Below are positions 27,740-60,612 of a stretch of 64,000 nucleotides of DNA, piece by piece. The stretch is from a virus (Duplodnaviria; Caudoviricetes). The notes under the pieces were generated by a model, which was not told where the DNA came from, did not search any database, and saw only the letters and a program-made list of their open reading frames with translations. A program made the position numbers and the translations under genes. Each line of letters opens with the position of its first letter. Within the stretch, counting starts at the first letter, position 1. Where the stretch lies: the IMG/VR virus record IMGVR_UViG_3300023048_000001, positions 64,001 through 128,000 of that record. One strand, 5' to 3'.

Positions 27740-28181
27740 CCATCAGGTTTTTAACATGGTCAATCAAATTATAACCTAGATTGAGGAAAATCTCCCCAGC
27801 AGGATCATTGGCAAAGAAGTCAGCATCAAGGTCAATAGGATCAATCTTGTAATGGACTTCAATACCGTCATTATAATTAATTTCTGAATACATTCGCTCG
27901 CCACTGAAACCAAACAACTTACCATTGTCAGTTTGAAGGTGAATTGTCATCTTGCATTCTGAGTTTTCTTTCTTATTAAAATAGAAGACAAATCCATAGA
28001 TGACATATCCTTCGGGATGATTAGGAACCGACAAAGGAGCATACTCATAGCCTAATTTATTAGTCCAGCGTTCAACATCCTGCCCATAGATGACAAGACT
28101 TTCGATATCAGTGTACTCACCATTCATGAAGTTAGTTAATTCACCAATGGCATACACATTGGCCGGGTATTCATATGTCAT
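27726..28181 (-). CDS. Hypothetical protein
   Basis: 151-aa ORF, GAGG SD. Confidence 0.65.
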   Translation of the reverse strand: MTYEYPANVYAIGELTNFMNGEYTDIESLVIYGQDVERWTNKLGYEYAPLSVPNHPEGYVIYGFVFYFNKKENSECKMTIHLQTDNGKLFGFSGERMYSEINYNDGIEVHYKIDPIDLDADFFANDPAGEIFLNLGYNLIDHVKNLMDDER

Positions 28182-38264: not shown

Positions 38265-38657
38265 TTATTCGTGGCGGTCGTGAACAGAGAGGGGAGCGCC
38301 ATAGGTTTCGGCAAAGCGGCTGTCACTGGTATATGCCCAATTTCCGCCAGCCATGGGAGCATTCATATCACCTTCCACCTTGAGACGGTAGGGACAACCT
38401 TCCATTGCAGGTGGCAACACTTCGAAGATGACAGCACGCTTCCGGTAATCTTCAGTCATATCTTCCAATTTCCAATTACCACGCTCACATGGTACGAAAA
38501 AGCTTTTTGCATTGACTCCGAACGTATCCAGTGCCGTGACACCACCGTTTGTGCAGTCGGTTCCCATGCGCAGGATATCCACTAACAGGTAACGTCCACA
38601 TTCATTCAAGGCCTGAGCGCCAGCAAAGGTATGGGTAGTGAAGTGATTGAAGCGCAT
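38265..38657 (-). CDS. Hypothetical early protein
   Basis: Element B leader; DCTNGGV..MAGGN...SDSRF..HDR.E. Confidence 0.75.
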   Translation of the reverse strand: MRFNHFTTHTFAGAQALNECGRYLLVDILRMGTDCTNGGVTALDTFGVNAKSFFVPCERGNWKLEDMTEDYRKRAVIFEVLPPAMEGCPYRLKVEGDMNAPMAGGNWAYTSDSRFAETYGAPLSVHDRHE

Positions 38658-46685: not shown

Positions 46686-46838
46686 AGGCGGAGATAGAGG
46701 GAGTCGAACCCCCAAAACAATGCTTCATCTATTAGGCATGTACTTAGCCATTTTATCACTGGTTGTCTGCGCAAACTTCCAGAGGATTACACATTGCACT
46801 GACACGCATGTCAGCAGCTACCAATTGCTTTTATCTCC
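46686..46838 (-). ncRNA. ~153-nt tRNA-like RNA with greatly expanded middle domain
   Basis: GGAGATA/TATCTCC acceptor stem plus G discriminator, GGGGG-TTCGACT-CCCTC T arm, AGC-AATTGGTA-GCT D-like arm. Confidence 0.65.
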
Positions 46839-55483: not shown

Positions 55484-56485
55484 TCATGTGTGTAGGAGTT
55501 CGTGTGCCTGACGATGGAGATAATTTACGTCATCTTCACTGAGGTTGTCAACTAATTTAATTGTTCCATTGAGGATATTTTCAGAAACTTTGTGTATGAA
55601 GGTCAAATCTGCCTTGGATACGACCTCACGGTAATTATTTAAAGCAAAATCTCTGAACCATCCTGAGGTGAGAGTGGTACAAACACGTTCCAGTGCCTTG
55701 TGGAAGGCCTTTGAGACGTCTCTCTCACCATTTAAAAGATATCTCTCAGTGGCTATCACGTAACTCTCTTCTAGTACGCAACAGATTTGCTGATGGTGAG
55801 TCAGGTCATCCCACTTTCTCTTTAAACATAATGCCATTTCAAGATCATCCTTCATCTTTTCATAGATGGGACGGTCCTCATGCTTCACGGCTTCATGGAT
55901 ATCATCGTGAATGACGAAATATCTCACGCTGTAGTGCTTGTCACTGAAGAATTCAGAATTGGTCATGTTCAGCTTGGGAGTAGACTTACGTCTCACACGG
56001 TTGGTCGTCTCCTTCTTACGTAGCTGGGCATACCTCAGGTCCATCTTTAACTTATTCTCAGACACGTATGCCTGTAGGTCTAGGTAGTCCTGTACATTCT
56101 TAGCAAAATGGATAGGGTGATTGATGTGGGCTCGCTTAGTAGCGAACAGGTCAGCGATGGGGAGGGCTTCAAAGGTGTTGTTGAAATCATCATCCACCAA
56201 AGGACCAAGCATCGTTCCACGGTTGTAGATGTATTCTACCGAGGGAAGGAGGTTGTTTTCAATTTCATAGTGAACCTTGCGCTCACCATAGAGGTCTAGT
56301 ATTACACTGACCTTGTACTCAGACTTACTTTTAAACTTAATGACATGGGAGCTAACACGCTCATACCATGCATCATATTCATCGGTAGACATAAAAACGT
56401 CAAAGTCCGCTCGTGCTAGACGGGCAGACTCGACTTTAATCTTATTGTGTGCAGCTAATGCACGAGAGCCAATAATGTACATCAC
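55484..56485 (-). CDS. Putative nucleotidyltransferase-like phage protein
   Basis: IIGSRAL...DFDV; HDDIHE; EESYVIA.ER; TLTSGWFR. Confidence 0.6.
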   Translation of the reverse strand: MMYIIGSRALAAHNKIKVESARLARADFDVFMSTDEYDAWYERVSSHVIKFKSKSEYKVSVILDLYGERKVHYEIENNLLPSVEYIYNRGTMLGPLVDDDFNNTFEALPIADLFATKRAHINHPIHFAKNVQDYLDLQAYVSENKLKMDLRYAQLRKKETTNRVRRKSTPKLNMTNSEFFSDKHYSVRYFVIHDDIHEAVKHEDRPIYEKMKDDLEMALCLKRKWDDLTHHQQICCVLEESYVIATERYLLNGERDVSKAFHKALERVCTTLTSGWFRDFALNNYREVVSKADLTFIHKVSENILNGTIKLVDNLSEDDVNYLHRQAHELLHT

Positions 56486-58554: not shown

Positions 58555-59058
58555 ATGGACACTATTATCTTCTTTGATCTTGAAAATACTCTCATATGGG
58601 ATTGGACGGATAACCGCGATCCCATGTGGCTAAAGCACCCTGAAATCACCGAGTGGATTTTCGCTCAAGGTGATTTCCGTGCTGGTCTCTTTTCATGGGC
58701 TATCTGGAATCCTAAAGATATAGCCGAGTTCAGTGAAGAGGGTGGAGTCCGTGAAGCCATCGAAACAACCCACCAGTTTCAATTTGAGGATGATCTAATC
58801 ATCACTCGTGGAATGCTGGGTGACCGCTTCAGGAAATGGTTTAAAACTATGCCTTGGGTCTCTGACGATGATTGGTTTGAGTTCTTCAAGAAGCGCCAGA
58901 CCATCCAAGAGCTATGGCTCCATGAATTCAATCAGCCGAACACTCGTGTTGTTCTATTGGATGACACTGTAGAGAACGTGACTATGATTAATAATAGTGT
59001 CGAGAACAACCGTCTAGAGTTGATCGACCCATGGACCTTTAAGGGAATGTTTAAATGA
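58555..59058 (+). CDS. HAD-superfamily-like protein
   Basis: IFFDLENTLI, LFSWA, VLLDD. Confidence 0.6.
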   Translation: MDTIIFFDLENTLIWDWTDNRDPMWLKHPEITEWIFAQGDFRAGLFSWAIWNPKDIAEFSEEGGVREAIETTHQFQFEDDLIITRGMLGDRFRKWFKTMPWVSDDDWFEFFKKRQTIQELWLHEFNQPNTRVVLLDDTVENVTMINNSVENNRLELIDPWTFKGMFK

Positions 59059-59378
59059 CAATGCGTTTCTTCGCTATCCAATGCACTGCTTGCAATGATG
59101 TGCTAATCAGCCGTGCAGGCCATGACTTCAACCGCTGCTCATGTGAGGACATGCTATTCATCGATGGAAACAGTTCCCTGTCAGGTGATGGCTACTATCG
59201 TGTGGGTTACAACATCACTGAAGCTCGTCCTAGTGTCAATGTCATGTATGTCGATCTTCCCATTACACCAAGGGAAGCTTACGATGACTGGAACAAAAGA
59301 ATTGATAAGTGGAAGAAAATCGATATTACTAAGTATCCACCTATCGAAATTCCCAAAGAATCTGACAAGAATAAATAG
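59055..59378 (+). CDS. Zn-ribbon protein
   Basis: C..C.D...S...HDF..CSC...IDG. Confidence 0.7.
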   Translation: MTMRFFAIQCTACNDVLISRAGHDFNRCSCEDMLFIDGNSSLSGDGYYRVGYNITEARPSVNVMYVDLPITPREAYDDWNKRIDKWKKIDITKYPPIEIPKESDKNK

Positions 59379-59398: not shown

Positions 59399-59731
59399 AT
59401 GACAGCACACGTTTCAAGTACTCAAATCCTCGATCATATTAAAACTGCTACCTCTATCTCTGTAGAAGGTAAGGTCTTTGATAAGATCACTGTAACAGAT
59501 ACAAAGGTATCAATCGGTCCTTATACCTTCCTCATTGATCATTTTGATATTGGTGGTCTGTCTCCACAGACTATCGTACTCATGGATACTGATGGTGAGT
59601 ATAGACATCTTATGCTCCTAGGTGAGGATGATACCCGTCTCGATCATCCTGATTGGTCCATTGAACAATATAACCCTGAAAAGATTCGCAATCATCACCT
59701 CCTACCAAAGGGTGACAAGAAGACCAAATAA
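59399..59731 (+). CDS. Hypothetical protein
   Basis: 110-aa ORF, AGGT SD. Confidence 0.6.
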   Translation: MTAHVSSTQILDHIKTATSISVEGKVFDKITVTDTKVSIGPYTFLIDHFDIGGLSPQTIVLMDTDGEYRHLMLLGEDDTRLDHPDWSIEQYNPEKIRNHHLLPKGDKKTK

Positions 59732-59734
59732 GGT

Positions 59735-59763
59735 TTGACAGGAAGTTATAAAACATCTAATAT
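59735..59763 (+). promoter_or_regulatory. Sigma70-like promoter of the RNA operon
   Basis: TTGACA-N17-TAATAT. Confidence 0.65.
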
Positions 59764-59771
59764 TTGTCTCG

Positions 59772-59990
59772 TGGTCAACAACATGTAACTCACCGCTAGG
59801 GCGGATATATTCACCAGTAATATATGAAGGTGCGATCCCTTGAGACAGCGTTAGACGTTCTATATGAGGGTGCGATTCCTTCCTGTTGTTGTGAAGCCAA
59901 AGTTACGGTGAAAAGTGATGCATAAGCCAAGCGTGCGTGTGCAAACATCTGATCCATTTTTCTAGAGAATGAAATCTAGCCGTAGCGGTA
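59772..59990 (+). ncRNA. Putative structured RNA(s) with two T-loop-like hairpins
   Basis: CAACAACA/TGTTGTTG closing stem; repeated TATATGARGGTGCGATYCCTT. Confidence 0.5.
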
Positions 59991-60008
59991 CTAAATTTAG
60001 AATAATAT

Positions 60009-60093
60009 GCCACTATGGCGGAATAGGTAGACGCAGCAGACTTAAAATCTGCCGCCCTTGGGCGTCCGGGTTCGATTCCCGGTGGTGGTACCA
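60009..60093 (+). tRNA. tRNA-Leu (TAA)
   Basis: GCAGA-CTTAAAA-TCTGC, long variable arm, GGTTCGATTCC, CCA. Confidence 0.96.
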
Positions 60094-60110
60094 TATTATT
60101 CAAACAGTTT

Positions 60111-60238
60111 GATCCCTTAGCTCAGTGGTCTGATGGAAGAACAATCATTCTTAGTGTAATCAGAATGACCTTCGGAAGTCTTAGAGCGGAGAACTCTAAA
60201 TCCTCGCGTCGTGGGTTCGAATCCCACAGGGATCGCCA
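60111..60238 (+). tRNA. CTA-anticodon (amber suppressor-type) tRNA with a 50-nt D-loop insertion
   Basis: GATCCCT/AGGGATC acceptor, GCTC/GAGC D stem, loop CTCTAAA (CTA at 60196-60198), GTGGG-TTCGAAT-CCCAC, GCCA end. Confidence 0.8.
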
Positions 60239-60327
60239 AATTGATGTAGTTGCAGTGAGACACACTCCTGTAATTTAAGTAGGCAAGAATGCAGTGACTT
60301 AATACTTCTTTTTAGTGTGTATAACAC

Positions 60328-60362
60328 AAAAGCCCTTGACGATTGTTAAGGGCTTTCTTTTT
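60328..60362 (+). terminator. Intrinsic terminator of the tRNA operon
   Basis: AAAGCCCTTGAC...GTTAAGGGCTTTCTTTTT. Confidence 0.8.
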
Positions 60363-60372
60363 GGAAAATATA

Positions 60373-60612
60373 ATGGAACTTCTAATCAACATCTTATTCG
60401 TCCTCCACTTCGGCTATCATGCCGCTGCTACCATTGGTGGAGTCTGGTCCCTTCTACATAGCCACAATGCTCACAAACGTAGCTGGTGGAAGATTGCCCT
60501 AGCTTTTGTATGGCTCGCTTTGAGTATCTTGCTACTCGTTGTCAGCCATGATAAACTCCATCATCACGAGGACGAATGCAATCATGTTCAAACTATTCAA
60601 GAAAAAGCCTGA
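60373..60612 (+). CDS. Small His-rich membrane protein
   Basis: Two TM segments. Confidence 0.6.
   Translation: MELLINILFVLHFGYHAAATIGGVWSLLHSHNAHKRSWWKIALAFVWLALSILLLVVSHDKLHHHEDECNHVQTIQEKA

Follow-up and report, generated by a model that had tools for sequence, protein, structure and literature searches.

A phage tRNA(CUA) gene with a 50-nucleotide insert in its D-loop, and similar inserts in other phage tRNA arrays

A virus genome was found to encode a tRNA with a CUA anticodon whose D-loop holds 50 extra nucleotides. In our preferred reading, to which we give a probability of about 0.45, this gene yields an expressed tRNA-shaped RNA that would keep the extra sequence as an arm, rather than lose it as an intron, and that would read UAG weakly or in a regulated way, if at all. 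Amber tRNAs as such are already known from jumbo phages; what is new here is the insert. Inserts in the D-loop are also present in other phage tRNA arrays, and at least two families of them keep the insert by compensatory change, one being unannotated in the cultured Lactobacillus phage A2.

The stretch analysed (64,000 nt, hereafter the window) corresponds to bases 64001-128000 of a 174,626-base IMG/VR virus record, for which CheckV gives a completeness of about 50%. Positions are those of the window, unless they are given as genome positions, which refer to the record.

Results

A complete tRNA body around an enlarged D-loop

Positions 60111-60238 (+), read directly, make up a complete tRNA body whose anticodon is CUA and whose CCA end is encoded. 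The acceptor stem (60111-60117 with 60228-60234) is paired at 7 positions out of 7, U8 and A9 lie directly 3' of its 5' strand, and the D-stem joins GCTC (60120-60123) to GAGC (60184-60187) by four pairs out of four. After G26 (60188) comes the anticodon stem (60189-60193 with 60201-60205), paired at four of its five positions, with a mismatch between A30 and C40. The anticodon loop, CTCTAAA (60194-60200), has CTA at 60196-60198 as well as U33 and A37. It is followed by a variable loop of 5 nt, GCGTC, whose C48 is able to pair with G15, by the T-arm GTGGG-TTCGAAT-CCCAC (5/5 in the stem), by the discriminator G73 and by CCA at 60236-60238. Four stems with one anticodon-stem mismatch, U33, A37 and an encoded CCA had been reported in a first-pass annotation of the sequence, and the direct reading agrees on each point. 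The nucleotides of the L-shape are all present (U8, A14, G15:C48, G18, G19, A21, G53-T54-T55-C56, A58).

Compared with the canonical elongator tRNA family (RF00005), the gene has the 7-bp acceptor, 4-bp D and 5-bp T stems, the GTTCRANYC motif and U33/R37. The D-loop, however, is not canonical: it begins with AGTGGTC, in which A14, G18 and G19 are found, ends with TTA, and totals some 60 nt, as against about 7-11 nt. The parts of the gene and its surroundings are listed in Table 1.

Table 1. Features of the tRNA(CUA) locus, in window coordinates
Feature	Position	Strand	Evidence
Promoter-like site TTGACA-17-TAATAT, just 3' of the stop of an upstream 110-aa ORF	59735..59763	+	Consensus scan, 10/12 matches
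Non-coding leader with two T-arm-like hairpins	59772..59990	+	Sequence reading
tRNA-Leu(UAA), canonical	60009..60093	+	ARAGORN; Rfam tRNA 57.1 bits
tRNA(CUA) 5' part (acceptor 5' strand, U8 A9, D-stem 5' strand, D-loop start AGTGGTC)	60111..60130	+	Direct reading; ARAGORN after deletion
Insert, 50 nt, between G19/U20 and A21	60131..60180	+	Deletion restores tRNA; predicted fold
tRNA(CUA) 3' part (A21, D-stem 3' strand, anticodon arm, variable loop, T-arm, acceptor 3' strand, G73, CCA)	60181..60238	+	Direct reading; Rfam; ARAGORN after deletion
Intrinsic terminator, 12-bp stem then T run	60329..60356	+	Scan of the region

ARAGORN called 3 tRNAs in the window, and the intact tRNA(CUA) gene was not among them. 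The intact gene also remained below the gathering score of the Rfam tRNA model, with a partial match at 60175-60235 (24.4 bits for a threshold of 29). Once positions 60131-60180 had been deleted, ARAGORN called a tRNA(cta) of 78 nt with a normal cloverleaf, exactly the length that had been predicted for the tRNA left after removal of the insert. When the whole record was searched for a T-arm together with a paired acceptor stem, the locus was recovered alongside ordinary tRNAs, and the few chance matches fell within ORFs and were devoid of the other arms. Because deletion restores a 78-nt tRNA and the locus is recovered among ordinary tRNAs, we conclude that the gene is not a chance look-alike.

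The insert is predicted to form a hairpin

The insert lies in the D-loop between G19/U20 and A21, and its edges can slide by up to 3 nt, since the GTC repeat at its ends creates four equivalent deletion frames, from 60128-60177 to 60131-60180. This repeat had been described as a duplication flanking the insert; it is present, but too short to be taken as a target-site duplication. No second copy of the insert was found in the 174.6-kb record, and a mobile miniature element, for which this 3-nt GTC would be the sole candidate target-site duplication, was rejected.

In the minimum-energy fold of the whole RNA, the acceptor, D and T stems are kept and the insert forms a hairpin. Its predicted base consists of a 5-bp and a 2-bp helix, followed by an internal loop and then by an apical stem of 7 bp (60145-60151 with 60162-60168), which closes a 10-nt loop (60152-60161) starting with TAG. 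An alternative basal pairing joins GAAG to CTTC. The earlier description of the insert as structured is therefore borne out for the predicted pairings (7-bp apical stem, 5+2-bp basal stems, GAAG/CTTC alternative), but not for the energy, which is ordinary when compared with shuffled sequences (z -0.49 for the insert alone, -1.34 for the whole RNA). A spare anticodon-arm mimic, of the sort that certain phage suppressor tRNAs have, was also looked for within the insert and rejected, as no stem of at least 5 bp carries a 7-nt loop of the U33 type.

A tRNA pair in a short plus-strand block

Judged from its sequence, the source is a jumbo phage, with Bacillus phage G as a distant relative. For a DUF7275 protein encoded in the window (55484-56485, -), an identical copy occurs on a 346-kb contig and a relative with 86% identity on a contig of 57 kb; the protein also matches gp205 of phage G at 37%. 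The window also encodes a ribonucleotide reductase and a peptidoglycan hydrolase (Hydrolase_2 family), and the latter gene points to a bacterial host.

The tRNA-Leu(UAA) ends 17 nt upstream of the tRNA(CUA). The pair sits in a short plus-strand block, 146 of the 156 crude genes of the region being on the opposite strand; the genes near the pair are small, and the phage is gene-dense. Promoter-like sites are no more numerous in the region than in shuffled sequences, and the site listed in Table 1 is a suggestion only. The leader may form a further structured RNA, transcribed together with the two tRNAs. Its two hairpins read AAGG-TGCGATC-CCTT and GAGG-GTGCGAT-TCCTTC, with TATATGA ahead of each. 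At a larger scale, G+C content steps from 0.36-0.41 to 0.43-0.48 at about position 28000 and remains high until about 60000; the step coincides with a shift from large genes to small minus-strand genes.

No intron signature was found

The first-pass annotation had envisaged a suppressor gated by splicing. We searched for a bulge-helix-bulge motif (two 3-nt bulges, 4 bp apart). The best arrangement had 9 pairs out of 10, with a G/A mismatch in the central helix, and about one match of this quality is expected by chance in 704 trials. It implies moreover an intron of 45 nt, which would leave an over-long D-loop. The minimum-energy fold does contain two 3-nt loops, UGG and AGU, opposite each other rather than staggered. 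With a chance-level best arrangement and a wrong intron length, an archaeal-type intron was rejected.

Profile searches of the 174.6-kb record detected no tRNA splicing endonuclease EndA (PF01974), no RtcB (PF01139) and no RNase III; RtcB and a splicing nuclease, both singled out beforehand as worth looking for, are thus missing from the record. No ligase of the T4 Rnl1 type was detected in it either, a weak negative, as the control genomes likewise gave no match. One protein of an RNA-ligase family (PF09414, 321 aa) is encoded at genome 166130-167095 (-), in a tRNA-rich region and with no nuclease partner; it keeps a cut-and-rejoin route thinkable. Another protein of the phage, of 279 aa (genome 37714-38553, +), has a PTH2 peptidyl-tRNA hydrolase domain.

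Group I introns in tRNAs interrupt the anticodon loop and measure at least 200 nt, a size that 50 nt falls far short of. No ribozyme, group I or other intron family came up in a permissive Rfam scan of 59700-60500, and both a group I intron and a self-cleaving ribozyme were rejected on this basis. In the absence of a convincing bulge-helix-bulge, of splicing genes, of a ribozyme or group I match and, as described below, of an in-frame TAG gene, the proposal of a splicing-gated suppressor was not upheld.

The record reveals no need for amber suppression

ORFs in the standard code cover 96-100% of the first 88 kb. Elsewhere in the record, allowing read-through of TAG raises ORF coverage no more than read-through of TGA or TAA does. 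At eight sites, long frames meet at an in-frame TAG, but either the opposite strand scores as well or better, or the frames are separate genes. None of these eight junctions, which had to be inspected as candidates for in-frame TAG genes, was convincing, and no believable gene of this kind is present in the 174.6-kb record, about 50% of the genome. The earlier statement that the genes are read in the standard code thus agrees with both ORF coverage and the inspection of in-frame TAGs. A TAG-recoded ("code 15") phage was rejected: the CUA anticodon is there, but no convincing gene with an in-frame TAG was seen in the record, which is about half of the genome.

Among 234 stops of a crude gene set, 148 were TAA, 70 TGA and 16 TAG. 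TAG is therefore the rarest stop, and it accounts for only 1 of 78 in the large-gene half. As had been pointed out, it does end the gene at 59055-59378. Read-through of TAG stops would extend the proteins by a median of 4.5 codons, versus 8 and 5.5 codons for the other stops, which indicates that TAG-ending genes have no special back-up stops.

Uninterrupted relatives in other jumbo phages

Exact 18- and 22-mers (anticodon arm; T-arm plus acceptor strand) had no match in viral contigs. Of the 27 loci returned by a degenerate pattern associating CUA with a D-loop insert, none pairs its acceptor stem. In BLAST searches of cultured phages, matches were confined to the 3' half of the gene and were to generic tRNAs, and the two ORFs flanking the tRNA locus had no kin in the viral contigs. 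Among the viral contigs and cultured phages searched, the tRNA(CUA) with an insert is a singleton.

Uninterrupted tRNA(CUA) genes, annotated as tRNA-Pyl or tRNA-Sup, are present in Pectobacterium phage CBB, Xanthomonas phage XacN1 and Sinorhizobium phage Phosso, three jumbo phages using the standard code. Their CUCUAAA loop is that of our gene, their variable loop and T-arm are nearly the same, the bodies are 68-76% identical, and the CBB gene likewise adjoins a tRNA-Leu(UAA). However, their D-loop is 7-8 nt long and standard finders detect them, whereas our gene has 50 nt more and a mismatch in the anticodon stem.

Other rebuilt tRNA-like genes in the same phage

ARAGORN and the T-arm/acceptor scan revealed large inserted domains in three tRNA-like genes, at genome 110690-110838, 155508-155622 and 169940-170062. 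Flanked by tRNA-Met and tRNA-Lys, the first of them (window 46690-46838, -; 149 nt) combines a paired acceptor stem with D- and T-arms and has a fold z of -1.93; in place of an anticodon region it carries a 6-bp/4-nt hairpin and a larger domain. Abnormal anticodon loops were called by ARAGORN at genome 149852-149942 (-) and 147035-147108 (-), one being an 8-nt loop read as UAAA. In the other odd tRNAs of this phage, the decoding half is rebuilt, and the tRNA(CUA) is the only odd tRNA of the record that associates a D-loop insert with an intact anticodon arm. A role of the tRNA(CUA) as a decoy, or non-decoding look-alike, the alternative offered in the first-pass annotation, would fit the many other rebuilt tRNA-like genes of the phage. 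Adjoining the tRNA-like gene at 155508-155622, a sequence of 125 nt (genome 155373-155497, -) has a paired acceptor-like stem and two T-arm-like hairpins.

D-loop inserts in other phage tRNA arrays

Viral contigs were scanned with a pattern that a normal tRNA cannot match (TAGCTCAG, 35-65 nt, AGAGC, 24-28 nt, GGTTCRAWTCC). It was found at 91 loci, corresponding to 79 distinct sequences. Of these 79, 31 are single molecules that pair their acceptor stem and hold an insert of 30-60 nt inside the D-loop. Acceptor pairing was absent from 34, 10 were tandem partial tRNA copies, and in the remaining 4, of which three have a CUA anticodon, the extra arm lies in the variable region. Three tRNA(CUA) of viral contigs (L034, L062, L080) have a normal D-arm, a long extra arm in the variable region and an encoded CCA.

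Among the 31 D-loop-insert molecules, the anticodon arm is canonical in 10 and non-canonical in 21. The insert is 3' of G18G19, as in our gene, in 11 of them, and 5' of G18G19 in 20. Many are embedded in same-strand tRNA arrays, according to ARAGORN. As we defined this set (insert in the D-loop; D-stem, G18G19 and T-arm kept; adjacent tRNA on the same strand), the tRNA(CUA) gene belongs to it. However, none of the 31 has a CUA anticodon, and their inserts are unrelated in sequence to that of our gene. One family, with an insert in tRNA-Ile(GAU), was considered as prophage attachment sites, and this was ruled out, as ARAGORN places the family inside tRNA arrays.

In two pairs of related sequences, L014/L029 and L006/L076, the insert hairpin stays paired: 3 and 4 doubly compensated pairs, respectively, are among the differences, and no pair is broken. 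A homologue of L006/L076 is present in Lactobacillus phage A2 (AJ251789.2, 38534-38662), unannotated, between ORF51 and ORF52. It has a conserved two-tier hairpin in the D-loop, and no U33. In the three-way alignment of this family, conservation is higher in the insert than in the anticodon arm, double changes are seen in 8 of the 38 predicted pairs, and the elbow pair G19:C56 has become C19:G56 in A2. From the compensatory pairs, the conservation of the insert in the A2 family and the switch of the elbow pair, we infer that these D-loop inserts are kept parts of folded, L-shaped RNAs. A second unannotated tRNA-like gene of A2, at about 38396-38466, is the upstream neighbour of the first; it scores 45 bits with the Rfam tRNA model and overlaps the end of ORF51.

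Applied to cellular genomes, the same pattern gave at least 120 loci, and among the matches listed many are archaeal D-loop introns. In Bacteroidales genomes (L219, L220, L224, L225; via L097, L113, L194), extra copies of tRNA-Phe(GAA) have a hairpin in the D-loop. A normal tRNA-Phe is found 6-10 kb away, and its 3' part is identical. By their sequence, these extra copies look like ends of integrated elements with a tRNA-like attachment site. The cellular class, comprising archaeal introns as well as these tRNA-Phe copies, is therefore mixed, and none of the matches listed is related to our gene. A literature search found no description of D-loop hairpin inserts in bacterial or phage tRNAs.

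Discussion

A proposed extra arm kept on a tRNA body

We propose that the gene descends from an amber-suppressor-type tRNA(CUA) of jumbo phages, and that the 50-nt arm would have been gained between G19/U20 and A21, where the D-loop has its variable pocket. Transcription would run from the promoter-like site to the terminator of Table 1, together with the tRNA-Leu(UAA), and the usual tRNA end-processing enzymes would trim the ends down to the encoded CCA. The arm would stay on. Since all the nucleotides of the L-shape are kept, it would project beside the elbow, in the way the variable arm of class II tRNAs projects from the core. With a bulky arm by the elbow and a mismatched anticodon stem, a poor or regulated UAG reader, or a non-decoding look-alike, would be more likely than a routine suppressor; as a look-alike, the RNA would bind a tRNA-handling protein. 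The tRNA(CUA) would then be grouped with the other RNAs that this phage appears to have rebuilt on a tRNA chassis. The insert-bearing tRNAs of other phages, being unrelated to the gene, bear on this proposal by analogy.

The main alternative is a functional tRNA(CUA) that took a 50-nt insertion not long ago and is being lost as a pseudogene. We judge such a disabled gene unlikely, though several observations would suit it: the gene is a singleton, without relatives in the contigs searched, its insert folds no better than chance, one pair of its anticodon stem is mismatched, the record gives no sign that amber suppression is needed, and an engineered D-loop insert was unstable in E. coli (PMC5397188). 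Yet all the other stems and the conserved tertiary nucleotides are intact, the insert falls exactly in one of the few pockets that tolerate a hairpin without breaking the fold, and the same site is used elsewhere by insert-bearing tRNA-like genes under structural selection. In a gene-dense phage, the gene also still has a promoter-like site on one side and a terminator on the other. Alternatively, the 50 nt could be a true intervening sequence, excised before the two halves are rejoined into a 78-nt amber suppressor gated by splicing. That excision yields a textbook tRNA, that an RNA-ligase-family protein (PF09414, 321 aa) is encoded in a tRNA-rich region and that archaeal D-loop introns of similar size exist all speak for it. 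It nevertheless seems quite improbable, given a record with no convincing bulge-helix-bulge, no EndA, RtcB or RNase III and no in-frame TAG gene to serve, a host that is bacterial by its peptidoglycan hydrolase gene, and an insert that matches no ribozyme or group I intron and is too short for the latter.

If the arm does stay on, the 128-nt RNA could still be charged and read UAG as a working suppressor. Its CUCUAAA loop is identical to that of other jumbo-phage tRNA(CUA), its acceptor end is intact, with G73 and CCA, and TAG is the rarest stop (16/234, and 1/78 in the large-gene half); ribosomes, besides, accept a large domain on the variable loop of a tRNA (PMC5397188). What makes this outcome improbable is the A30/C40 mismatch, the lack of special protection of TAG-ending genes (median extension of 4.5 codons), and the fact that no gene of the record needs read-through. 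The position of the arm beside the elbow also weighs against it; the elbow of tRNAs is a contact site of RNase P and of ribosomal elements. A more elaborate version, in which the UAG of the apical loop (60152-60154) pairs with the CUA anticodon of the same molecule and keeps it inactive until opened, is hardly credible. The triplet is there, and with 14 bp plus loops the arm would in principle be long enough, but an unpaired TAG occurs in 31% of shuffled inserts, the cognate codon is unpaired in the insert of 4 out of 13 D-loop-insert tRNAs, for 3.7 expected, and the minimum-energy fold partly pairs the triplet. As a long shot, phage D-loop hairpins could be an undescribed extension of tRNA, with the arm serving here as a handle that makes a competent amber suppressor conditional, for example by docking of a phage protein or by cutting and rejoining of the Rnl2 type. 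In that case, read-through of stop codons would be turned on in the course of infection.

In phage tRNA arrays, standard tRNA finders overlook a set of genes whose D-loops hold inserts, and this wider set, tractable in A2, may matter more than the tRNA(CUA) gene alone. Should the arms stay on the mature RNAs, they would represent a new kind of tRNA expansion, and might account for some of the "tRNA look-alike" load of jumbo phages. Should they be removed, an undescribed route of tRNA processing would operate in bacteria or their phages.

Comparison with known systems

Archaeal D-loop introns, cut by EndA at a bulge-helix-bulge and joined by RtcB, are likewise short and occupy a position in the D-loop. 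They differ in that our gene has no convincing bulge-helix-bulge, the record encodes neither EndA nor RtcB, and the host is judged to be bacterial. Group I introns likewise interrupt tRNA genes, in bacteria, plastids and phages, and hide them from finders; however, they sit in the anticodon loop and match an Rfam model, whereas the present insert has 50 nt, sits in the D-loop and gave no match.

The T4 RNAs named RNAC and RNAD are possibly tRNA-like in shape. They are non-standard small stable RNAs, co-transcribed with phage tRNAs. The T4 tRNA region makes two small RNAs whose role is unexplained (PMC3014915).

Extra domains have also been placed on tRNAs by design. [quoted passage not shown] The V-Spinach tRNA thus has its extra arm in the variable loop, whereas that of our gene is in the D-loop. 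In class II tRNAs, the long variable arm is likewise an extra helix on an L-shaped tRNA, and it stays on the mature molecule; its site is the variable loop rather than the D-loop.
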